Origin: Escherichia coli
GTDB taxonomy: Bacteria; Pseudomonadota; Gammaproteobacteria; Enterobacterales; Enterobacteriaceae
Strand: one strand, 5' to 3'
NCBI RefSeq assembly: GCF_003334305.1
Contig: NZ_QOWS01000012.1
DNA: 64,000 nt
Made by a program: the position numbers and the translations under genes
Part shown: positions 22,133 to 33,983 of the stretch, piece after piece
How positions within the stretch are numbered: position 1 is the stretch's first letter
Layout of the letters: each line of letters opens with the position of its first letter
Notes under the pieces: generated by a model
Databases searched by the model: none
The model's input: only the letters and a program-made list of their open reading frames with translations
Told to the model about the DNA's origin: nothing

Positions 22133-24028
<1,896 letters not shown>

Positions 24029-24072
24029 TAATCTTTACCCGGCAAACATGTGTTTTGCCGGGTTGTCGCTGA

Positions 24073-24942
24073 TTATTTTATTGGGCACAGTTTGTTACGA
24101 TCTGGAAATAGTGTTGCCAGCGAACCAGCCAGAGTTTTCCAGTCCGTAGCCATTTTTTCTGCTTGTGCAGTTGTTATTACTGCACCTTGTTGTTTAATAA
24201 GCTCATCCTCCACTCTGGTATAGTGAATAATGGTAAAATCCGTAGAGGACCATTTATCCTTAGAGAACATCTTCGTCATCGCATGAATGTTTGCTTGCCC
24301 GTCATCGATAAAAACAATCGCGTCATATTTGTTCCCCATTTTATCCAGCATATAATCGAGAATTACGCCTTTATCTTGCCCGGAAGAAAAAAATACCCCC
24401 TGGCTGTACAGCCATGACCGTTTGAGTTTCCCTTTTTCAAAGGGTGGCAAAGTATCCTCTTTCTTCCTGAGTGCGGAAGACGAAAAATCAATGCCGTTTC
24501 GCTTTAATTCCCGCAATGTCGGAAAGAGAGTATCCGGTGCACGGGATGTCAGAGCAAAAGCGGTATGCTTTTGTTGCCACTGTTTTAACATTGTCGGTAA
24601 CTGTGGCTCGGTAAGCTGCATAGGGCTAAGTTCGTAAAGCATACTGATTGTATTTTCATACAGGCAGGGAACTTTTTGCGAGTCATCCGGCTTTAAGGGC
24701 AATTTATCGGTTTACCATTGATACCAGATATCACCGCCAATGCGTGTGCCACTCGTTAATAACGTATTATCAATGTCAAAAACCAATAATATCTTATCGG
24801 ATGGATAGAGAGTTTCCTTTTCGGTGATAATTTTACTGACCGCACTATATTCGCCAGTAACTATATTTTTTACCTGTGCGTAAGATAAAGCTGGCAGAGC
24901 AGAGAGTATCATCCAGAGAATGATTTTAAATTTATTATTCAT
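24073..24942 (-). pseudogene. Secreted HAD-superfamily phosphatase interrupted by one in-frame TAA (24712-24714)
   Basis: ORF 24712-24942 carries signal peptide plus HAD motif I DIDNT; ORF 24073-24702 continues in the same frame with motif IV FIDDGQ; the two are separated only by the stop. Confidence 0.65.
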
Positions 24943-24955
24943 TTTTTATTCCAGA

Positions 24956-25690
24956 TTAGAAAGTATAAGTCAGACCCCAGCGCCAGCGGATTTGGCGATT
25001 ACTTGATGTTTTATCCACACCTTTATAATCCGCAATACTCATATAGGGTATCCACGATCCCATTTTGTACCCTACTTTAAATGATGCGGTATAGTTTTTA
25101 TGGCCATCATTCCAGGTTAAATAACCATTATTGTAATAGACCAGGTTTAACTGATATTGGAAGTTGGTTTTTTGTGGTCGATAGTCGATCCACACATCGT
25201 AACGGCGGTTATTACGATCATCGTTGCCATAACCTTTGGATTTATCGGTAGCTTTATCCATGTCATAACGAAAACGACCCGAAACTTTCCATTCTTTGCT
25301 GAAATCATAACCCGCAGAAAGACCATATTCGTAAGTTGACCAATATTGCGTGGTATCAAGCCAGAACATGGGTTCTAACCAGAATTTTTTGTCATCCAGC
25401 GGCTTAAAGCGGTAAACAACAGATAATCCTGTTCCGTTATTGCCAAATTGTGAGGGGTCCCACTTATCTTTATCACCTTCATCGGTGTTATAGCGTAATT
25501 CTCCCATCAAACCGATACCATTACTAAAAAATGTACCAAATTCAACGCGGTCCGCGTGGGTGCGAGTATCATCAAGATACTCATGACGATAATCAATAAA
25601 TCCATGCGGCTGTTCTGCACAGACTAGTGTAGGTGACAGGCAGGATAACATTGTTATTCCTGCAAGTGATATTTTAAGATAAGAATTCAT
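24956..25690 (-). CDS. KdgM/NanC-family small outer membrane porin (tentative)
   Basis: 244 aa; signal peptide; alternating aromatic/hydrophilic beta-strand pattern; C-terminal ...WGLTYTF. Confidence 0.6.
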   Translation of the reverse strand: MNSYLKISLAGITMLSCLSPTLVCAEQPHGFIDYRHEYLDDTRTHADRVEFGTFFSNGIGLMGELRYNTDEGDKDKWDPSQFGNNGTGLSVVYRFKPLDDKKFWLEPMFWLDTTQYWSTYEYGLSAGYDFSKEWKVSGRFRYDMDKATDKSKGYGNDDRNNRRYDVWIDYRPQKTNFQYQLNLVYYNNGYLTWNDGHKNYTASFKVGYKMGSWIPYMSIADYKGVDKTSSNRQIRWRWGLTYTF

Positions 25691-25785
25691 AATATTCCCT
25701 TTCAGAATAAAATATATTTTTGGTGATCGAATACACCATCTGATGATTCCAGGTATTAGAATGTTTTTTTATCTATAGTTTGACT

Positions 25786-26910
25786 TTAAATTTTAAGTTT
25801 GTTTTCCTTATCAATGAATAGATAAAATTTCGTCTGTTGATGGGGCTGGAAATTATTATCAGATACAAATATTAACGATGTATGCCCATCAATCAGAGGA
25901 CCGAAGGTTACCCCTTCAATACAATCCGCAGAGGAAGTGTAATCAGCAAAATCAATTAATAATTTTTTACTGACGGGTTGTAACGTGGATTTATTGGACC
26001 AATCTTGCAGACTGTCAATATCCTTGATATCGCTGGCAGCAGTTAAATCGACCATATAAACTCTGACAGAGTAATCCCAGTCATTGAACCCAGCACTGAC
26101 GTTTCTGCCGGAACGTTCGATGACCAACAATTGGTGATCATTCAGCGCCAGGACCTCGGATACGCCATTATCATTAATACCGAACTTACTCACTTGCGGA
26201 ACAGGATCAGTAATATAGAGATATTCATGCAATTGCTTTGAAGGTCGACCGTCTGCATCTATAGAAAATTGCAGTAAGCGTGATGTACCTGAATTTATTG
26301 GACTTGCAATAGGCCCATCCTGTTTAAGGCTGCTTTCAACGGCGATAAAAAGTGATTTTCCATCTGGTGTAACTGTCAGGCCCTCCCAGGCGTTGCCGCT
26401 GCGAATACCATTGCTGCTCTCTTTGTCAGAACTAATATTAAATCGAGCAGGAAATAAAGACGTAAAATCTTTCTCCATTACGCCATCGAGAGTGCTCAGA
26501 CGCAGTGGAGCACCTAACTCCGAACTCCATAGTAATGACTTACCATTGTGTGTCAGGGCCAGACCTTCGGCATCCACCGTATTGGTCACGAAAGGCTGCT
26601 GTTTTGCATCAAGCAGTGGACGCTGGTTGAGAAAATTCACTTGCTCAATGCCCCTGGATGATACCTGTATTTTTAGTGTATAAAGACTGGCATCTCCTTC
26701 TTTATTATTGTTTCTGCTATCGTTAATAGCATAGAAAATATTTTTTTTTGCATCAAATGTGATGGCTGATAGCCCCGCGATTGTAACATTGTTCTGTTTT
26801 TCTCCCGTCCGGAAGTTGAACTCACCAGCATAATGAAGAAAACTGTTTGCCTGCGCTGTTGTGCATAACAGCGGTAATGCCAGAAAAATAGCGGCATGTC
26901 TTATTTTCAT
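25786..26910 (-). CDS. Secreted protein, probably beta-propeller; phytase-like/esterase family assignment tentative
   Basis: 374 aa; signal peptide MKIRHAAIFLALPLLCTTAQA; repeated EGL..T.DGKSL-type segments. Confidence 0.55.
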   Translation of the reverse strand: MKIRHAAIFLALPLLCTTAQANSFLHYAGEFNFRTGEKQNNVTIAGLSAITFDAKKNIFYAINDSRNNNKEGDASLYTLKIQVSSRGIEQVNFLNQRPLLDAKQQPFVTNTVDAEGLALTHNGKSLLWSSELGAPLRLSTLDGVMEKDFTSLFPARFNISSDKESSNGIRSGNAWEGLTVTPDGKSLFIAVESSLKQDGPIASPINSGTSRLLQFSIDADGRPSKQLHEYLYITDPVPQVSKFGINDNGVSEVLALNDHQLLVIERSGRNVSAGFNDWDYSVRVYMVDLTAASDIKDIDSLQDWSNKSTLQPVSKKLLIDFADYTSSADCIEGVTFGPLIDGHTSLIFVSDNNFQPHQQTKFYLFIDKENKLKI

Positions 26911-26939
26911 GATATTTACCTTTGTGTATGTATCTGATT

Positions 26940-27854
26940 TTAGTCGTGTTGTGAAAGAAAAAGATTAACTTCCGATGGTGTCGCCAGATGACCTCTGGCA
27001 CCTAATGCAGTAATATTTATTGCTGCAGTGGCAGAAGCAAATTTTAGTGCTTCAATTAAGGGCATGTTTTTTATTAAGCTATAAACAAATGCACCATTAA
27101 AAGTATCTCCAGCGCCAGTGGTATCAATAATGGGAATTGTATAGCTACCTATTTTTACTTGCTCATTGCCTTTGACTGCAATTACTCCCCTAACATCCAG
27201 CGTAACCACGACAGCCTCAAGTTGATACTCGTCTTGTATATCATGCAGAAGTGTAAAATCTGGCTCTGCTGCATAGCCACGAATAAAACCGTCATAATTA
27301 AATATCGCAATATCAGCAAGGTGTAAAATTCTGGCAAGGTGTTCAGGTGTTGCAATGATATGAGGCTCAATATCAACGACAACTTTTGTCATCTGGCTAC
27401 GGGAATATTCGGCCAGCATACGAAATTTCTCGATATCTGCTGGCATCGTATAATAATAACGGCTTTGCGCAATTGCCTGCAGGGCTTTTTCTTTATCCCA
27501 CTCATGATCACTACCAGGCGAGTAAACCAACGTTTTTTCACCTAATTCATCAATAAAGATAATCGCGGTATTGGCAATCAATTCCGGAATTACCTGAACG
27601 AAATCACAATTTACATGATATTTTTTAAATCCATCAAGAATGATCGAGGCTGAATGATCATTGCCCACACATGAAACAGATACCACATTGAGACCCAGTT
27701 GTCCCATCGCACAGGCACTGTTGGCGACTGTGCCGCCAGCTTGTTCACCCAGACGTGTCCCGACCACTTTACCGCCACGAGTGGGGAGTGACGGGATAGA
27801 TAAAAAAATATCTATATTTCCACTGCCTAAAGCGGCGACATCAAATTTCTTCAT
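26940..27854 (-). CDS. PfkB-family carbohydrate kinase
   Basis: Starts MKKFDVAALGSGNIDIF at ATG 27854 with gggaga SD; C-terminal PfkB signature DTTGAGDTFNGAF. Confidence 0.8.
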   Translation of the reverse strand: MKKFDVAALGSGNIDIFLSIPSLPTRGGKVVGTRLGEQAGGTVANSACAMGQLGLNVVSVSCVGNDHSASIILDGFKKYHVNCDFVQVIPELIANTAIIFIDELGEKTLVYSPGSDHEWDKEKALQAIAQSRYYYTMPADIEKFRMLAEYSRSQMTKVVVDIEPHIIATPEHLARILHLADIAIFNYDGFIRGYAAEPDFTLLHDIQDEYQLEAVVVTLDVRGVIAVKGNEQVKIGSYTIPIIDTTGAGDTFNGAFVYSLIKNMPLIEALKFASATAAINITALGARGHLATPSEVNLFLSQHD

Positions 27855-27858
27855 AGTC

Positions 27859-28857
27859 TTATTTCTCCCTATGGCTAACGCGTTGCCCGCCTGCGTCGAC
27901 ATAATCACAACTTAAATGCCAGCACATTTCATATAACCACTGCATGACCAGAAATAAATTGTTGGACTCACTGGCATCAGGTATAAAACTGATTAATTCT
28001 GCTGTCGCTCCCTGTTCAACAATTGCTTTTTGGGTTGCAATGTAAAATGGGTACTCGCGGGATGTAGCTGGCAGTAAAAAATAATGCTGACCGACACCAG
28101 CCTGATGTAAGCGTAATGAATGATAAAATTCTTCCAGTGGAAAGGCTGTCGCACGAATCTGTGGGCCGCAAGAAAGTAAATTGCTCCCCGATATTGCTAG
28201 TCCCCAACTTAAGCCACTCCCCAGAAACGTTATCTCTTTTTGTTGGTAAAAATGGCGCTTCTTTTGCTGCCAGTGCTGATTAATCTGGCTAAATTTCCCT
28301 TCTAAATCCTCTTCAATTTGCAGTGGTGTTAAGCCTGGACATAAGTTTTGCGCTAAGCGCAGGAGGGTATAAAGTGTGACGCTACTACTTTGCGTTGGAA
28401 TACCCTGCTTATTCGCCCATGTATAGAGCATGTTTTCTGTTATTGCGCAAAATGGTGTTCCAGGGCAATTCGTCACACCCAGCACTTGCGCGTTTGAGCA
28501 TACTGCGTGGCTAAGGGCGTCAACGGTCAGTGATGGTCTGCCACTTGCGCTGAGAATAATGATCAACGTTTCTTTCTGATAACGGGTTAAATCAGTCTGA
28601 AGAAAATCCCACGTTTGCAATGCGGAACAAAACAGATGTGTGTATTTCCCCAGCCAGGCGGCGGCACATAGTGCCACCGTCCAGGAGTCGCCCGATCCCA
28701 CTATACAGACGCGTTCAACAGCACGTTTATCGAGCTGAACAGATGAAAAACATTCACCCCAGATAGCTGCCAAATGGCGTAGCGCTGCCGCCGTTGCATT
28801 TATTTCCTCACGAGTTTGCGCTAATGGCATAACAGGAGCACGGGCTGGCATGTTCAT
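27859..28857 (-). CDS. Double SIS-domain sugar-phosphate isomerase/deglycase-like protein (FrlB/AgaS-like)
   Basis: 332 aa; two SIS-like halves (VGSGDS..., ILSASG...; FLGSGLSWG...); start ATG overlaps upstream stop (TAATG); 4 nt before kinase start. Confidence 0.7.
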   Translation of the reverse strand: MNMPARAPVMPLAQTREEINATAAALRHLAAIWGECFSSVQLDKRAVERVCIVGSGDSWTVALCAAAWLGKYTHLFCSALQTWDFLQTDLTRYQKETLIIILSASGRPSLTVDALSHAVCSNAQVLGVTNCPGTPFCAITENMLYTWANKQGIPTQSSSVTLYTLLRLAQNLCPGLTPLQIEEDLEGKFSQINQHWQQKKRHFYQQKEITFLGSGLSWGLAISGSNLLSCGPQIRATAFPLEEFYHSLRLHQAGVGQHYFLLPATSREYPFYIATQKAIVEQGATAELISFIPDASESNNLFLVMQWLYEMCWHLSCDYVDAGGQRVSHREK

Positions 28858-29933
28858 TATTTCTCCTGTGCCTGTACTGCAAGCAATGTCAGACCCGATG
28901 CGATCGCTTCAACATCGAAATCTTTATTATTTACGGCGCGGAAAAAGGCATATTTATCTTCAGGGAGCGCATCAAAACCGCGCCATGCCCCTGCAATTGC
29001 GCCTGCCATCGTAGCGATGCTATCGGTGTCATTGCCAATATTGGCGCAGGCATGGATGGTTTCCCAGGGTTCTCCTTTGCAGTACAGCAATAGACCGATT
29101 GCCGCAGGAATGGATTCATGGGCGGCAACAGAGTTACCAACCAAACCTTCCATTTCTCGCAGACAAGACTCCAGATCATTGGCACGTCTGGCGATGTCCG
29201 CTGCAAGTTGGATGCGCATGGCGATAGATGGCCCTGCTACACATCGTGCATATTGTTTGGCCAGGCGTTCGCCGTAATTCGCTCCCCAGATTGCGGCATC
29301 CAGTAATGATGTGAGCGAGGCTTCTGGTAACATAGCCTGCGATGTCGCTGCAGCGATGGCGCAAGCGCTGGCAATCGCAATATTGGTGTCATGTGAAGGT
29401 AGGCAAGTTATTAACGCCAGGCGACACGCTTTTTCTTTCTTGCCAGGCCAGATCAATCCTGCCGGGGCTACACGCATTCCTGCGCCATTCGTGGTGCCGA
29501 CATTGGGGGCCTGACGAGAAGATGTTCCAATACGCCCAATGGTGTTTGTTGGTCTACCTTCTTTTAGTGCCTTGACGATTTGTTCTGTTGTGGGGCCTTT
29601 ATAATTTGCGTAGGGCTGCATATCGGCCCAACGCAGAAGACAAGCTAACCAGTCATTATTGGTGAAGTTATCAAATCCAGCCTCAATTAACCCTTCTGAA
29701 AACACATACATTTGGCTGGAATCGTCGGTGATAAGTCCTGCAACACCATTTAATGAGCCAGCAAAGGTATCGGCAGGAGGAGAAACAAAGGCATTTAAAA
29801 AACCTCCCCATTGAGTTTTTATTTCATCAATGCTGTAGAGTTCAGTCGCTGCGCCTAATGCATCGCCCATACCTGCGCAGGCTAAAGAACCTAATATTTT
29901 GTTATAAATTACGGCTTGTTCTATTTTGTTCAC
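28857..29933 (-). CDS. ADP-ribosylglycohydrolase-family protein
   Basis: 358 aa; N-terminal GSLACAGMGDALGAATE and C-terminal IGNDTDSIATMAGAIAGA typical of the family. Confidence 0.7.
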   Translation of the reverse strand: MNKIEQAVIYNKILGSLACAGMGDALGAATELYSIDEIKTQWGGFLNAFVSPPADTFAGSLNGVAGLITDDSSQMYVFSEGLIEAGFDNFTNNDWLACLLRWADMQPYANYKGPTTEQIVKALKEGRPTNTIGRIGTSSRQAPNVGTTNGAGMRVAPAGLIWPGKKEKACRLALITCLPSHDTNIAIASACAIAAATSQAMLPEASLTSLLDAAIWGANYGERLAKQYARCVAGPSIAMRIQLAADIARRANDLESCLREMEGLVGNSVAAHESIPAAIGLLLYCKGEPWETIHACANIGNDTDSIATMAGAIAGAWRGFDALPEDKYAFFRAVNNKDFDVEAIASGLTLLAVQAQEK

Positions 29934-29946
29934 AATATTCTCTCTG

Positions 29947-30699
29947 TTACACGCTAAAACTGTCTTTTGTAATTCGTGCTTTGTAGGAGTACCGACTTGC
30001 GGGATAAACCATCTCTACATACTCCATTGGTTTACGTTCCACGGATAACGTGACGCGGGTACAACTTAATACGACGTCATCGGCAGTCAGTTCCAGTAAT
30101 TGACGCTCAAGGGGCGAGGGAAGCCGGGCAGAGATAATCTCCGTTGCTTCTAAAGGTTTAATAGCGAGTTTTTCTTCCAGTAAAATATAGAGCGAACCCG
30201 TCGCCAGCAGCTCTTCCAGAGTTATTTCTTGTCCGTCATTTAACGCAAGCCATGATGTCTGAATACCCAGCGGCGTACTTCCCATATAGCGAATGCGTTT
30301 TATACAGAAAACGGTATGGACATGGATATCAAGTTCGAGATTTTTTCTGATAATATCACTGAGAGGAATATAACCTATTTCAAGAATATTCTGTGCCGGT
30401 ACGCCACCACGAGCCTTAATGTCATCAGTAAAACTATGTAATAAATGATTTTCCCGACTGCGAGCCGGTAATGTAAATGTTCCTTGCCCGTGGACACTAT
30501 GCAGGTATCCGCGTTGTTTCAAACTTTCTATTGCTTTCCGAATTGTTGTTCTGCTGCTTAAAAAATGTTCAGCCAGTTCTCTTTCTGTTGGTATAGCTTT
30601 GCCTTCTTTCCATTCACCGTTATCAATTTTTTTCTTTATTTCATCAAAAATTTCACGATGCTTTAGCTGACCTTTACTGGCTTTATAAATTCTTATCAT
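29947..30699 (-). CDS. GntR/HutC-family transcriptional regulator
   Basis: 250 aa; N-terminal winged-HTH (PTERELAEHFLSSRTTIRKAIESL) and UTRA-like C-terminal domain; first gene of the minus-strand operon. Confidence 0.8.
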   Translation of the reverse strand: MIRIYKASKGQLKHREIFDEIKKKIDNGEWKEGKAIPTERELAEHFLSSRTTIRKAIESLKQRGYLHSVHGQGTFTLPARSRENHLLHSFTDDIKARGGVPAQNILEIGYIPLSDIIRKNLELDIHVHTVFCIKRIRYMGSTPLGIQTSWLALNDGQEITLEELLATGSLYILLEEKLAIKPLEATEIISARLPSPLERQLLELTADDVVLSCTRVTLSVERKPMEYVEMVYPASRYSYKARITKDSFSV

Positions 30700-30717
30700 G
30701 ACAAAGCCTCATTTCAA

Positions 30718-30729
30718 GTGGTTGATACC
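30718..30729. promoter_or_regulatory. Candidate HutC-type operator TGGTTGATACCA upstream of the GntR gene
   Basis: TGGT-N4-ACCA palindrome about 20 bp upstream of the regulator start codon. Confidence 0.35.
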
Positions 30730-30881
30730 AACTTTACATTCTTTTATTTTTATTGCGCAGTATGCTTATTTGTTATCTGTGACATAAAACAGGAAAAACC
30801 ACATTTATTAATAAATATCATGCGGTTAAGTGAAATTGGTTTTTATGTGATGCTGCTCAATATTAACTCAGTGGTTTGTTG

Positions 30882-30893
30882 TGGTATCTACCA
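30882..30893. promoter_or_regulatory. Candidate HutC-type operator TGGTATCTACCA upstream of the symporter gene
   Basis: Second TGGT-N4-ACCA palindrome about 95 bp upstream of the transporter start. Confidence 0.35.
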
Positions 30894-30985
30894 ATGCATT
30901 TATTCTCAATCGTAAAGTTATGTGCTGAATGAGTTCCGATACATTTGTTTTTAATATAATTTCATGTGATTAATGAGTGCTGTGT

Positions 30986-32317
30986 ATGAAACTGACAATA
31001 AATGAAAAGATAGGTTTTGGTGCCGGTGATATGGCCATTGCGATAGTAATGATGTCTTTAGCCATGATCATCACTTATTTTTACACGGATGTATTTGGTC
31101 TGAAACCCGTCGACTTAGGTATTCTGTTATTTTCTGTACGTATTCTTGATGCTGTGATTGATCCAGTTGTGGGAACAATGACAGACATAACGAATACACG
31201 TTGGGGAAAATATCGGCCATGGTTGCTTTTTATGTCAATACCGTTTGGGATAAGCATTTGGTTGATGTTCACCACACCTGATACCGATTATTCAGTTAAG
31301 CTTTTATGGGCCTGGGCTACCTATGTGTTACTTACCTTGACCTATACGTTAATCGCTATTCCTTATGTTTCATTAATCAGCGTTATCACGGATGATCCAC
31401 AAGAGAGATTGAGCGCCAATGGTTATCGTTTTGTTATGACAAAAATTGCCATGTTCGCCGTAACAATTATTGTTCCTTTATCTGCAATGTATCTTGGGAA
31501 GAATAACGTACAACTGGGTTATCAAATAGCAATGGGGACAATGGGTATTCTGGCAACGTGTTTATGCCTGTATTGTTTTTTTAGCGTGAGAGAGCGCATC
31601 TACCATCCAAAACCCAGTCTCGGTATGGCCGCGCAGTTTCGGTTACTGATCAAAAATGATCAATGGCTCATTTTGGGCGCTGTAATTGCGATCATTATGT
31701 TTGGCGGGATTATTCGTAACTCTGTCGCTGCATATTATGCAAAATATTACCTGAGTGGTGGGGATGCTTTAATTTCACCGTTTTTAACTTCAGGCGTGAT
31801 CGCCTCAGTTCTGGCTATGATCGCTTGCACCTGGCTTACTCGTCTCTATGACAAAATAAAAATATTTCGTTATACCCAATTACTGGCGTTCGTGGTGGGT
31901 GGTGCGATGTATTTCGTGCAACCAAATTCTATAGTGCTAGCTTTTACATTTTATATTGTGGTGACTTTCCTGACGGATATCCAGCTTCCCATTTATTGGG
32001 CATCCATTGCTGAGTCCGTGGATTACGGTGAAATGAAAACGGGGCAACGTGTTTCTGGCCTGGCATTTGGCGGGATTCTCTTTTTCCAAAAGTTCGGTAT
32101 GGGGCTGGCAGGGGGCTTTATCGGAATCGCTTTAGCCTATCTGGATTATCAACCAGGCGTAGAACAAACACCACAGGCGCTGTGGGGGATCTGCCTGTTA
32201 ATGACGATCATTCCCGCGATACTTAACCTGCTTACCGGACTCATCATGAGATTTTATCTGATTAATAATGAATATTACGAACAGATAAAAGCACGGTTAC
32301 AAACGGCGGAAGAGTGA
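30986..32317 (+). CDS. GPH-family (MelB/UidB-like) glycoside:cation symporter
   Basis: ~443 aa, ~12 hydrophobic helices; divergent from the GntR operon; GTG at 30977 is an alternative start. Confidence 0.75.
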   Translation: MKLTINEKIGFGAGDMAIAIVMMSLAMIITYFYTDVFGLKPVDLGILLFSVRILDAVIDPVVGTMTDITNTRWGKYRPWLLFMSIPFGISIWLMFTTPDTDYSVKLLWAWATYVLLTLTYTLIAIPYVSLISVITDDPQERLSANGYRFVMTKIAMFAVTIIVPLSAMYLGKNNVQLGYQIAMGTMGILATCLCLYCFFSVRERIYHPKPSLGMAAQFRLLIKNDQWLILGAVIAIIMFGGIIRNSVAAYYAKYYLSGGDALISPFLTSGVIASVLAMIACTWLTRLYDKIKIFRYTQLLAFVVGGAMYFVQPNSIVLAFTFYIVVTFLTDIQLPIYWASIAESVDYGEMKTGQRVSGLAFGGILFFQKFGMGLAGGFIGIALAYLDYQPGVEQTPQALWGICLLMTIIPAILNLLTGLIMRFYLINNEYYEQIKARLQTAEE

Positions 32318-32325
32318 AAATAAAT

Positions 32326-32352
32326 GGCCGGCAAGCAGCACCGGCCTCTTTT
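32326..32352. terminator. Terminator hairpin between convergent symporter gene and ygiN
   Basis: ggccgg-caagcagca-ccggcc followed by tctttt. Confidence 0.6.
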
Positions 32353-32360
32353 CAGAAATA

Positions 32361-32675
32361 TTAAATCCCTGGCTGCAGAATACGAATATTCATCTCCAGC
32401 ACGTCGCCTTTTACGGCTTCGCTGTACGCCTTCATGTGCGGGGTTTGCAGATGCGCTTCAAGATGCGCGATGCTTTCCCACTGCTCAATCATCACGATAG
32501 AATCCGGTGCCATAGACTGGAAACTCACGCCAGCAGCGCAATCCACCATTGGCGCATAGCCGTGGCAACCTTCTTCTTTCAGTACGGTTGGAACGATTTT
32601 AGCAAACTGATCCAATACCGCCTGACGGTGATGTTGACCAGGACGAGTACGGATTTCTGCGATTACGGTAAGCAT
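32361..32675 (-). CDS. ygiN: Quinol monooxygenase
   Basis: 104 aa ORF, ABM-domain size; upstream of mdaB. Confidence 0.9.
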   Translation of the reverse strand: MLTVIAEIRTRPGQHHRQAVLDQFAKIVPTVLKEEGCHGYAPMVDCAAGVSFQSMAPDSIVMIEQWESIAHLEAHLQTPHMKAYSEAVKGDVLEMNIRILQPGI

Positions 32676-33287: not shown

Positions 33288-33605
33288 TTTTTAACCTCAA
33301 GGTGAGACGTTTGTCGACTATAGTACGTCACAGAGCGGTACGGTGAAATTAGCAAAATGTGCAAAGTCTTTTGCGAATTTAGCAAAAGTCTGATCTAGCT
33401 CTGACTCACCGATGCAGGATAAATATTTTCTGAAAATGACAATACTGATAGCCATTCCTCATAATTCTTACTCGCACCGGAATAATTTACACGTTTGGTT
33501 CGGTTTTTTTTGGGATTGAAAATATGGCTTTGAATAAGTAAAAGATGAAAATATCAACGTGTCATGTTGATAATTATAAATGGATTTTTATGAGCGTACT
33601 GATAT

Positions 33606-33938
33606 ATGTTAAAGCATAAAATTCAAACAATATTTGAAGCTCTGTTATACATAATGCTTACTTATTGGTTAATAGATGCTTTTTTTGCTTTCAATAAGTA
33701 TGACTGGATGCTTGAGTCGGGAGGCAATATTTGCAGTATACCTTCCGTTTCAGGCGAAGATCGTATATTGCAAGCAATGATTGCAGCATTTTTTCTTCTT
33801 ACGCCACTTATTATTCTTATCTTAAGAAAACTCTTTATGCGGGAAATGTTCGAGTTTTGGGTATATGTATTTTCGCTCGGTATTTGTCTGGTTTGTGGTT
33901 GGTGGCTTTTTTGGGGACGGTTTATATTTTGCTATTAG
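33606..33938 (+). CDS. ygiZ: Inner membrane protein YgiZ
   Basis: 110 aa hydrophobic ORF after an AT-rich upstream region. Confidence 0.75.
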   Translation: MLKHKIQTIFEALLYIMLTYWLIDAFFAFNKYDWMLESGGNICSIPSVSGEDRILQAMIAAFFLLTPLIILILRKLFMREMFEFWVYVFSLGICLVCGWWLFWGRFIFCY

Positions 33939-33983
33939 TAAAATCTATGAGAGTCGTTTTAACGGCTCTCATAGACAGAGAAG

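Follow-up and report, generated by a model that had tools for sequence, protein, structure and literature searches.

The parE-ygiN intergenic site of Escherichia coli holds, in the 64,000-nucleotide stretch of contig NZ_QOWS01000012.1 that we analyzed (the window), an islet of eight genes (positions 24029-32360, 8332 bases) whose genes suggest chemistry of the nucleoside or riboside type and not a generic sugar island. The genes encode a secreted HAD-superfamily phosphatase (DUF2608), a KdgM-family porin, a secreted phytase-like beta-propeller protein, a PfkB-family kinase, an SIS-domain protein, an ADP-ribosylglycohydrolase (ARH)-family protein, a GntR/HutC-type regulator and a GPH:cation symporter. 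We read the set as a system for scavenging a phosphorylated riboside or nucleotide-like compound (probability roughly 0.55), with roles assigned from protein families and genomic context. In kind, the islet is ordinary: it is a non-mobile accessory metabolic islet, and one of two cargo modules of the parE-ygiN site. The spacing of the genes from gntR to the DUF2608 gene (13, -1, 4, 29, 95 and 13 nucleotides of gap or overlap) suggests a seven-gene operon on the minus strand, divergent from the transporter gene.

Gene neighborhoods and proposed function

We surveyed 79 ARH loci across phyla, taken from one-genome-per-species collections, and found the ARH gene nearly always beside a PfkB kinase gene. 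The complete eight-gene module occurs at other chromosomal sites in other Enterobacterales, together with Tsx, a purine/uridine phosphorylase or adenosine deaminase. The Vibrio module includes a 5'-nucleotidase, Tsx and a Bmp-type nucleoside ABC transporter, which replaces the GPH symporter, and adjoins Tn7-like tnsABCDE genes. On a plasmid of Yersinia frederiksenii (NZ_MT039225.1; locus L096, 129968-139194), the module is flanked by IS3 and IS6 transposases and adjoins a very large neuraminidase-like gene. This version includes XapX together with UshA, which occupies the place of DUF2608 in the E. coli islet. This plasmid is 254 kb long, of type MOBP and mobilizable. Farther from the enterobacteria, ARH and PfkB genes of Burkholderiales, Rhizobiales and Azospirillales are found with a Bmp ABC transporter and an inosine-uridine nucleoside hydrolase (in Burkholderiales with a phytase-like gene as well), and a Caldilineaceae genome has its ARH gene among three nucleoside hydrolases, two GlmS-like SIS genes and PfkB.

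The riboside reading is founded on these recurrent neighbors (Tsx, the phosphorylases, adenosine deaminase, Bmp transporters, nucleoside hydrolases, UshA and XapX), and also on the kinase, which best matches ribokinases, and the transporter, whose best named relative is the pentoside-type YagG. Because the module occupies other chromosomal sites, has Tn7-like neighbors and is carried between insertion sequences (IS) on a mobilizable plasmid, it is a cassette passed from genus to genus, with nothing mobile left in E. coli. In Vibrio bivalvicida (locus L009, 13485-21062), tnsABCDE begins about 400 bp past the PfkB gene, and a GlmS-like SIS gene lies two positions upstream.

In the pathway that we propose, an anionic substrate would enter through the KdgM-family outer membrane porin, and the phytase-like esterase and the HAD phosphatase would strip phosphate or phosphodiester groups from it in the periplasm. 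A UshA-type 5'-nucleotidase would substitute for the HAD phosphatase in the Yersinia and Vibrio versions. The GPH symporter would import the resulting neutral glycoside, whose ribosyl glycosidic bond would be cut in the cytoplasm by the ARH-family enzyme. The ribokinase-like PfkB protein would phosphorylate the released sugar, or the glycoside ahead of cleavage, and the GlmS-like SIS enzyme may then isomerise, deaminate or deglycate the phosphosugar, passing it to central metabolism. Repression by the GntR/HutC protein through two TGGT-N4-ACCA operators would end when a pathway intermediate binds its UTRA domain.

Several observations weigh against this reading. No islet enzyme reaches an NCBIfam equivalog cut-off, which is why both the activities and the overall function were drawn from family and context. 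The SIS and inosine-uridine nucleoside hydrolase genes mostly replace one another beside ARH and PfkB, SIS occurring in gammaproteobacteria and the hydrolase in most alpha- and betaproteobacteria, with both together only in Chloroflexi and Nitrospirillum; given this alternation, the gammaproteobacterial version could handle a different compound from the alpha- and betaproteobacterial one. The kinase differs at the positions aligned to Lys43 and Glu143 of E. coli RbsK, which we take to be ribose-contacting residues, so its sugar may not be plain ribose. As for the secreted enzymes, the HAD protein matches class C acid phosphatases weakly in fold (TM score ~0.36-0.40, E 3e-4), and the fold matches of the propeller are generic, no closer to solved phytases than to generic propellers. 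The HAD phosphatase is, moreover, dead in the window strain, where the pathway may thus be impaired. In the full-text literature we found neither a substrate for this ARH subfamily, nor an experimental paper on the cluster, nor an experimental account of DUF2608.

Properties of the encoded proteins

The gene content listed by the initial annotation proved essentially right (Table 1), apart from the second SIS domain and the meaning of the interrupted HAD gene. Profiles placed the porin, the propeller protein, the kinase, the regulator and the symporter in the families first named for them, and the ARH assignment was upheld by its match to MJ1187 and by PF03747.

Table 1. Features of the islet and its borders, with positions in the window.
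Feature	Position	Strand	Evidence or remarks
parE	22136-24028	+	
parE-side spacer	24029-24072		hairpin 24037-24063 between convergent parE and DUF2608 genes
HAD-superfamily phosphatase DUF2608 (PF11019), secreted, pseudogene here	24073-24942	-	Pfam 5.8e-60
KdgM-family outer membrane porin, 244 aa	24956-25690	-	PF06178 3.6e-30, residues 31-244
Phytase-like esterase (PF13449), secreted beta-propeller, 374 aa	25786-26910	-	Pfam 1.3e-67
PfkB-family sugar kinase, ribokinase-like, 304 aa	26940-27854	-	NCBIfam and PDB matches
SIS-domain phosphosugar isomerase/deaminase-like protein, GlmS-isomerase-domain-related, 332 aa	27859-28857	-	Pfam SIS 5.2e-08
ADP-ribosylglycohydrolase (ARH)-family protein, 358 aa	28857-29933	-	1t5j, PF03747
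GntR/HutC-type regulator, 250 aa, first gene of the predicted seven-gene operon	29947-30699	-	NCBIfam HutC 106 bits, PhnF 95 bits
Divergent control region, two predicted HutC-type operators	30700-30985		TGGTTGATACCA 30719-30730; TGGTATCTACCA 30882-30893
GPH:cation symporter, inner membrane, 443 aa	30986-32317	+	TIGR00792; alternative GTG start 30977
ygiN-side spacer	32318-32360		bidirectional terminator-like hairpin 32326-32346; terminator scan match on minus strand; folds
ygiN	32361-32675	-	

The DUF2608 protein belongs to the HAD superfamily by its motifs I-IV and its family profile; among 26 homologues, D56-x-D58-x-T60, T132-S133 (TSR), K191 and D213-D214 were invariant or nearly so. The N terminus, MNNKFKIILWMILSALPALSYA, reads as a signal peptide, judged from sequence only. 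The AlphaFold2 model (pLDDT 87.9) found its best fold matches, weak ones, in class C acid phosphatases and 5'-nucleotidases, and PF03767, co-listed for some homologues, gave E 1.5 on the E. coli protein. Stand-alone DUF2608 genes of Alteromonas and Vibrio splendidus had uninformative neighborhoods. The internal stop noticed earlier is real: CAA has become TAA at codon 77 (24712-24714), upstream of motifs II-IV, in place of a glutamine (Gln77) that is invariant in the 26 homologues. It is, however, private to one strain rather than a trait of the islet, since the exact 61-mer with the stop occurred in 1 of the 407 genomes having that stretch, the other 406 differing. The one match is strain A7, an orangutan isolate (NZ_CP028767.1), which is 100% identical to the window across the whole islet, so that A7 or one of its clones is the probable source of the window. 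APEC O2-211 and APEC O78 each have an intact copy of the gene (289 aa).

Damage elsewhere takes other forms. APEC O78 has a GPH transporter gene (locus L006, 9956-11287) with an internal TGA at codon 227, one further carrier has an ISVsa5 insertion, and another retains 15% of the islet as an IS1-associated remnant. This indicates scattered, lineage-specific decay. The ratio of nonsynonymous to synonymous divergence (dN/dS) between E. coli lineages was 0.0-0.32 for all eight genes, highest (~0.3) for SIS; along with the conserved catalytic motifs of the ARH and HAD proteins, this speaks for genes that are functional in general.

The KdgM profile aligned over its full length to the porin (model positions 9-222 of 222), RefSeq names the protein 'porin', and orthologues are found within the module in other genera. 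The symporter scored 346.3 bits against the GPH family model TIGR00792 (cut-off 231.35). Its best named relative, the YagG subfamily, scored 359 bits against a cut-off of 610, and the YagG, UidB and MelB equivalogs were all below cut-off. With these two families in hand, one might propose uptake of an acidic plant glycoside (oligogalacturonide or hexuronide), in which a KdgK-like kinase would act on what the porin and symporter bring in. An oligogalacturonate porin defines the KdgM family, the GPH family includes the glucuronide transporter (matched at 211 bits), the kinase has weak matches to KDG kinases (~55 bits), and several of the carrier taxa are plant associated. Nevertheless, none of the module versions surveyed has a pectate lyase, KduI/KduD, UxaC or Eda-type gene, ribokinases dominate the kinase matches, and the ARH enzyme and the two secreted phosphoesterases would have no role, so that we hold this proposal to be improbable.

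The PF13449 protein has a signal peptide, and its structure model is a beta-propeller (pLDDT 89.7), in agreement with the family profile; we predict that it is a periplasmic phosphoesterase. KdgM porins and phytase-like proteins are pooled in one protein cluster built at 90% identity, apparently through an artefact of clustering. The Pfam name 'phytase-like', the presence of a second secreted phosphatase and a weak match of the kinase to IolC (80 bits) would all suit a phosphate-scavenging or phytate (inositol phosphate) cluster centered on the two secreted enzymes. We consider such a cluster very improbable, as the islet has no other iol genes, no Pho box evidence and no phosphate transporter, its regulator is of the GntR/HutC catabolic type, the propeller sits no nearer to solved phytases than to other propellers, and the ARH, SIS and symporter genes would be left without explanation.

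The kinase has the catalytic GAGD motif and the N-terminal GSxNxD motif of its family, and its best PDB matches are ribokinases (4x8f, 1e-30; 1gqt, 5e-28). It is not an RbsK equivalog, scoring 142.5 bits against ribokinase model TIGR02152 (cut-off 299.65) and 129.8 bits against PRK11142 (cut-off 341). Beyond the matches to IolC and KDG kinases, FrlD was matched at 44 bits. The SIS protein, described initially as a double-SIS protein, has one significant Pfam SIS domain (residues 48-152). A second is unsupported by Pfam, the C-terminal half having no significant match, and rests on protein length and a GlmS-like alignment. That alignment, to the NCBIfam GlmS model, covers residues 42-246 of 332 (6e-11, 41.5 bits against a cut-off of 418), with PDB matches to 3tbf and 3fkj at ~2e-06. 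The protein falls short of the GlmS equivalog, and neither the FrlB nor the NagB-II model matched it at E <= 1e-3.

The pairing of these two enzymes resembles the frlABCDR and fra loci, in which a GntR-family regulator and a dedicated transporter accompany a PfkB kinase and an SIS-fold enzyme that acts on the phosphorylated product; the fra locus has a periplasmic pre-processing enzyme besides. The islet shares the regulator, transporter, kinase and SIS-fold enzyme, along with a secreted helper enzyme, and could by analogy encode an Amadori or glycosylamine pathway, in which the kinase would phosphorylate the adduct, the SIS protein would act as deglycase, giving a sugar phosphate and an amine, and the ARH protein would hydrolyse an N-glycosylamine form. 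Such a pathway would accommodate the fact that the only family matches of the SIS protein are to the GlmS isomerase domain, that the SIS paralogues at the Caldilineaceae locus also touch the NagB-II and FrlB models, and that FrlD is among the weak kinase matches. On balance it seems unlikely: the SIS protein itself lacks the FrlB match, the kinase resembles ribokinase (142 bits) far more than fructoselysine kinase, and periplasmic phosphatases play no part in known Amadori pathways. The islet further differs from frl and fra in adding the ARH enzyme, the porin and the two phosphoesterases, and its recurrent partners (Tsx, the Bmp ABC transporter, nucleoside hydrolase, UshA, adenosine deaminase and XapX) are nucleoside specific, indicating nucleosides over Amadori compounds.

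The ARH-family protein best matches MJ1187 among PDB structures (1t5j, 2.9e-21), with ARH3 at ~3e-10, and PF03747 was found on its 98%-identical cluster representative and on all listed ARH homologues. Its motifs GDALG..TE, TDD and NDTD were invariant in 17 orthologues; we take GDALG..E, TDD and DTD to be the di-metal site motifs of the family, as in ARH3 and DraG. The protein is predicted to be a cytoplasmic ribosyl glycohydrolase. The only characterised members of the family reverse ADP-ribosylation of proteins or nucleic acids, and weak matches to DraG (41.9 bits), Tri1 (22 bits) and ARH3 could be taken to mean that this one does the same, in regulation or as an antitoxin or immunity factor like DraG or Tri1, with its neighbors unrelated. 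That is highly improbable in our view. The DraG and Tri1 scores lie far under their cut-offs (337 and 490 bits), no ADP-ribosyltransferase or toxin partner was present in any locus surveyed, and the gene is part of a tight operon with transport and sugar kinase genes, in which it overlaps the SIS gene by one base. The ARH-PfkB pairing, moreover, is seen in nearly all of the ~80 loci across phyla.

There is also a slim chance that the ARH enzyme is a catabolic glycosidase for alpha-ribosyl linkages beyond the reach of ordinary nucleoside hydrolases, and that the pathway feeds on ADP-ribosylation debris. The bond cut might be the ribose-ribose linkage found in poly(ADP-ribose) fragments or in cyclic ADP-ribose isomers made by TIR proteins, or the linkage in ribosyl-amino-acid remnants of ADP-ribosylated proteins. 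Phosphate would be removed from such debris in the periplasm, the ARH enzyme would make its cut, and a nucleoside hydrolase, or SIS protein and ribokinase, would follow.

Comparison with known ARH-kinase loci

The closest known unit to the islet is yegTUV-yegW (ggaR) of K-12, with STM4065-STM4068 of Salmonella (the aminoimidazole riboside kinase locus). In each case a single unit brings together a GntR/HutC repressor, a transporter, an ARH-family protein and a PfkB kinase, and the islet kinase matches the Salmonella structure 1tyy at 7e-13. The islet is nonetheless not a yegTUVW-type module. In place of YegT, an MFS protein of the nucleoside:H+ symporter type, the islet has a GPH symporter; yegTUV lacks the SIS gene, the porin and the secreted phosphoesterases; and yegTUVW is a K-12 gene set, whereas the islet is found in 7.5% of genomes. 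Identities to the K-12 proteins are low (ARH to YegU, 31%; kinase to YegV, 22%; regulator to YegW/GgaR, 25%) and indicate that the two sets are distant paralogues, not orthologues. The physiological substrate of yegTUV is unknown (PMC10819704).

A conceptual parallel, compared by shared families only, is given by the rus loci of Bacteroidetes, which couple ribokinase(s) and a transporter to ribose-freeing enzymes, including nucleoside hydrolases and, in certain species, ADP-ribosylglycohydrolases (bioRxiv 10.1101/574913). The logic of ribokinase and transporter joined to riboside-cleaving enzymes is the same, but the rus loci are SusC/D-type polysaccharide-utilisation loci with other regulators, and lack the KdgM porin, GPH symporter, SIS, phytase-like and DUF2608 genes of the islet.

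Regulator and control region

The HutC, PhnF and TreR models aligned over their full length to the regulator at 86-106 bits, all below their equivalog cut-offs, and orthologues with 74-84% identity carry PF00392 and the UTRA domain PF07702, which places the protein in the GntR/HutC family. We aligned the control region between gntR and the transporter gene across five sequences, namely two E. coli copies and three loci of other Enterobacterales (ARH amino acid identity 79-84%). The palindromes TGGTTGATACCA and TGGTATCTACCA (TGGT-N4-ACCA) were kept amid diverged surroundings and formed the two strongest conserved islands. The pattern TGGTNNNTACCA gave 5 matches in the 64 kb, against 0.24 expected, 3 of them (at 2 sites) in the control region. 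From these data we infer that the GntR protein probably represses both transcription units from the TGGTTGATACCA and TGGTATCTACCA sites. We found no further TGGTNNNTACCA-type operator inside the islet, and a search ahead of the porin gene did not yield a third one. Rfam had no match in the control region or in the rest of the islet, and we accordingly reject a riboswitch or other known RNA there.

Boundaries and composition of the islet

The initial annotation had placed eight open reading frames between parE and ygiN, neighbors in K-12, and both statements hold. Gene calls and the RefSeq annotation of the identical segment in strain A7 give the same eight genes, and in K-12 MG1655 parE and ygiN are separated by a 47-bp spacer with a hairpin of its own. 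This spacer is unlike either end of the islet, and no target-site duplication was visible when it was compared with the islet ends. The segment is also AT-richer than the flanking core, as claimed. GC content is 0.36-0.44 across most of the islet, with a local peak of ~0.52 at the ARH gene, against 0.50-0.56 in the flanks, and GC at third codon positions (GC3) is 0.32-0.43 in the eight genes against 0.49-0.64 in flanking core genes (nudF, yqiB, cpdA, yqiA, parE, ygiN, mdaB, qseC and qseB). With the genes missing from the site in K-12, and carriers making up only 409 of 5426 complete E. coli genomes, this sharp difference in GC and codon usage leaves the accessory status of the segment standing.

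Both of the hairpins said to bracket the islet are real. The one on the parE side folds at -16.9 kcal/mol (z -3.7) on the plus strand and -16.6 kcal/mol (z -4.2) on the minus strand; it was not called by the terminator scan because it is without a canonical T tract. The reported lack of an integrase, tRNA or IS was likewise confirmed, with no tRNA in window positions 10000-45000 and no mobility gene (integrase or IS) among the eight annotated products, and we found no flanking direct repeats around the islet. Set beside a classical integrase-type genomic island, the segment has the absence from related genomes at the site and the atypical composition, but not the att site or tRNA, the integrase or transposase, or the flanking direct repeats. 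Because tRNA, direct repeats and mobility genes are all lacking, we prefer to call it an islet at a recombination hotspot.

Four states of the parE-ygiN site

We scored the site with junction-specific queries in the same 5426 genomes. The islet was chromosomal in every one of its carriers (7.5% of the sample), which fell into three classes of identity to the window (>=99.9%, ~98.1% and ~97.2%). The site was empty, as in K-12, in 3268 genomes, held the fit operon only in 1749 (1871 fit carriers minus 122 in tandem), the islet only in 287, and islet and fit in tandem in 122; the four states sum exactly to 5426. The fit operon, which encodes a TonB-dependent receptor, a FecCD-type ABC transporter and an RpiR regulator, fills the parE-ygiN spacer in O157:H7 and B2-type strains (locus L003, 12460-19652; locus L005, 18395-25587). 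In APEC O2-211 the gene order is parE-islet-fit-ygiN. The variable region from ygiN to parE has been listed as GR22, corresponding to fit, and the full-text literature yielded no published description of the islet, only this link of the site to fit (PMC12928451).

The two cargo modules are alike in occupying the same site, bounded by terminators and without mobility genes, in only part of the species, and they can stand in tandem. They differ in function, fit serving iron uptake of the ferrichrome type, and in frequency, fit being ~4.6 times commoner.

Some observations concern the surroundings of the site and the genome records. Just downstream there is a second small variable spot (33288-33983; mdaB-ygiZ-qseC). 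Its gene ygiZ (GC 0.35), also in K-12, was not annotated in the O157:H7, APEC O2-211 and APEC O78 loci, and in addition strain 25DN has an Hcp-family gene and a hypothetical gene inserted between mdaB and ygiZ. In B2-type strains an aryl-sulfate sulfotransferase gene lies between ygiD and ygiC (L004, 667-3835; L005, 1-1438), accompanied in strain 25DN (L004) by dsbL and dsbI; in the O157:H7 locus, ygiD and ygiC are direct neighbors. The PLSDB record NZ_OL790696.1 (4.79 Mb), which has the islet, looks like a chromosome filed as a plasmid.

Origin and spread

The boundaries of the islet are stop codons and terminators, and its junctions resemble those of fit. On the ygiN side, the hairpin and tail of the islet-only state are nearly identical to the fit-ygiN intergenic sequence of fit strains. 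On the parE side, TAATC(T/C)T follows the parE stop in islet, tandem and fit-only strains (TAATCTT in the window, TAATCTT or TAATCCT in the comparison strains) but not in K-12. Read from the sequences, these shared junctions would fit nested deletions from a tandem ancestor and successive insertions between terminators equally well. The junctions do not settle the order, since ~23 nucleotides are unique to the fit-only junction, which is therefore not what a clean deletion from the tandem state would leave.

The genes differ in how far they have diverged between the window and a tandem-state strain, APEC O2-211. Synonymous divergence (dS) is 0.03-0.04 from DUF2608 through PfkB, 0.07-0.08 for SIS and ARH, 0.14 for the GPH gene and 0.30 for gntR, against 0.11-0.15 for parE, mdaB and qseC. 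The GntR gene (APEC O2-211 copy: L005, 15917-16669) has 91.9% identity, whereas neighboring islet genes have 97-99%, and it looks like a recombinant patch, possibly from a more distant donor. Since divergence is mosaic and integration machinery is lacking, homologous recombination in the conserved flanks, not site-specific integration, is the most likely means by which the islet entered E. coli and spreads within the species.

A possible but less probable history is that parE-islet-fit-ygiN is an old segment from which most lineages later deleted one or both modules. The existence of the tandem state, the terminator that islet-only strains share with the fit-ygiN junction and the TAATC(T/C)T missing from K-12 are all in keeping with it. 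So are the divergence between copies from distant E. coli lineages (1-3%, comparable to core genes) and an enterobacterial contig (L012) with the module downstream of parE and a TRAP transporter in between. Against such an old segment stand the strongly atypical GC3, the absence of an ARH orthologue from all other Escherichia species representatives, the unique nucleotides of the fit-only junction, and the dS of the left half of the islet, which is below that of the flanking core and suggests later spread between lineages.

Implications

As a clean four-state locus, the parE-ygiN spacer offers a convenient natural system in which to study the swapping of non-mobile metabolic modules by homologous recombination. 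The islet itself could reveal a nutrient niche of the 7.5% of E. coli that carry it, many of them animal and avian isolates. Reversal of ADP-ribosylation is the only known role of the ARH family, but in the islet, as at the other loci surveyed across phyla, its gene is tied to nucleoside uptake and ribokinase genes, and naming the substrate would give a function to a widespread gene set that includes yegTUV of K-12. Should the substrate turn out to be ADP-ribosylation debris of hosts, plants or competitors, the islet would encode the first dedicated bacterial pathway feeding on it; this would explain why ARH is kept beside conventional nucleoside hydrolases in many phyla, and would provide a function for orphan yegTUV-type loci.

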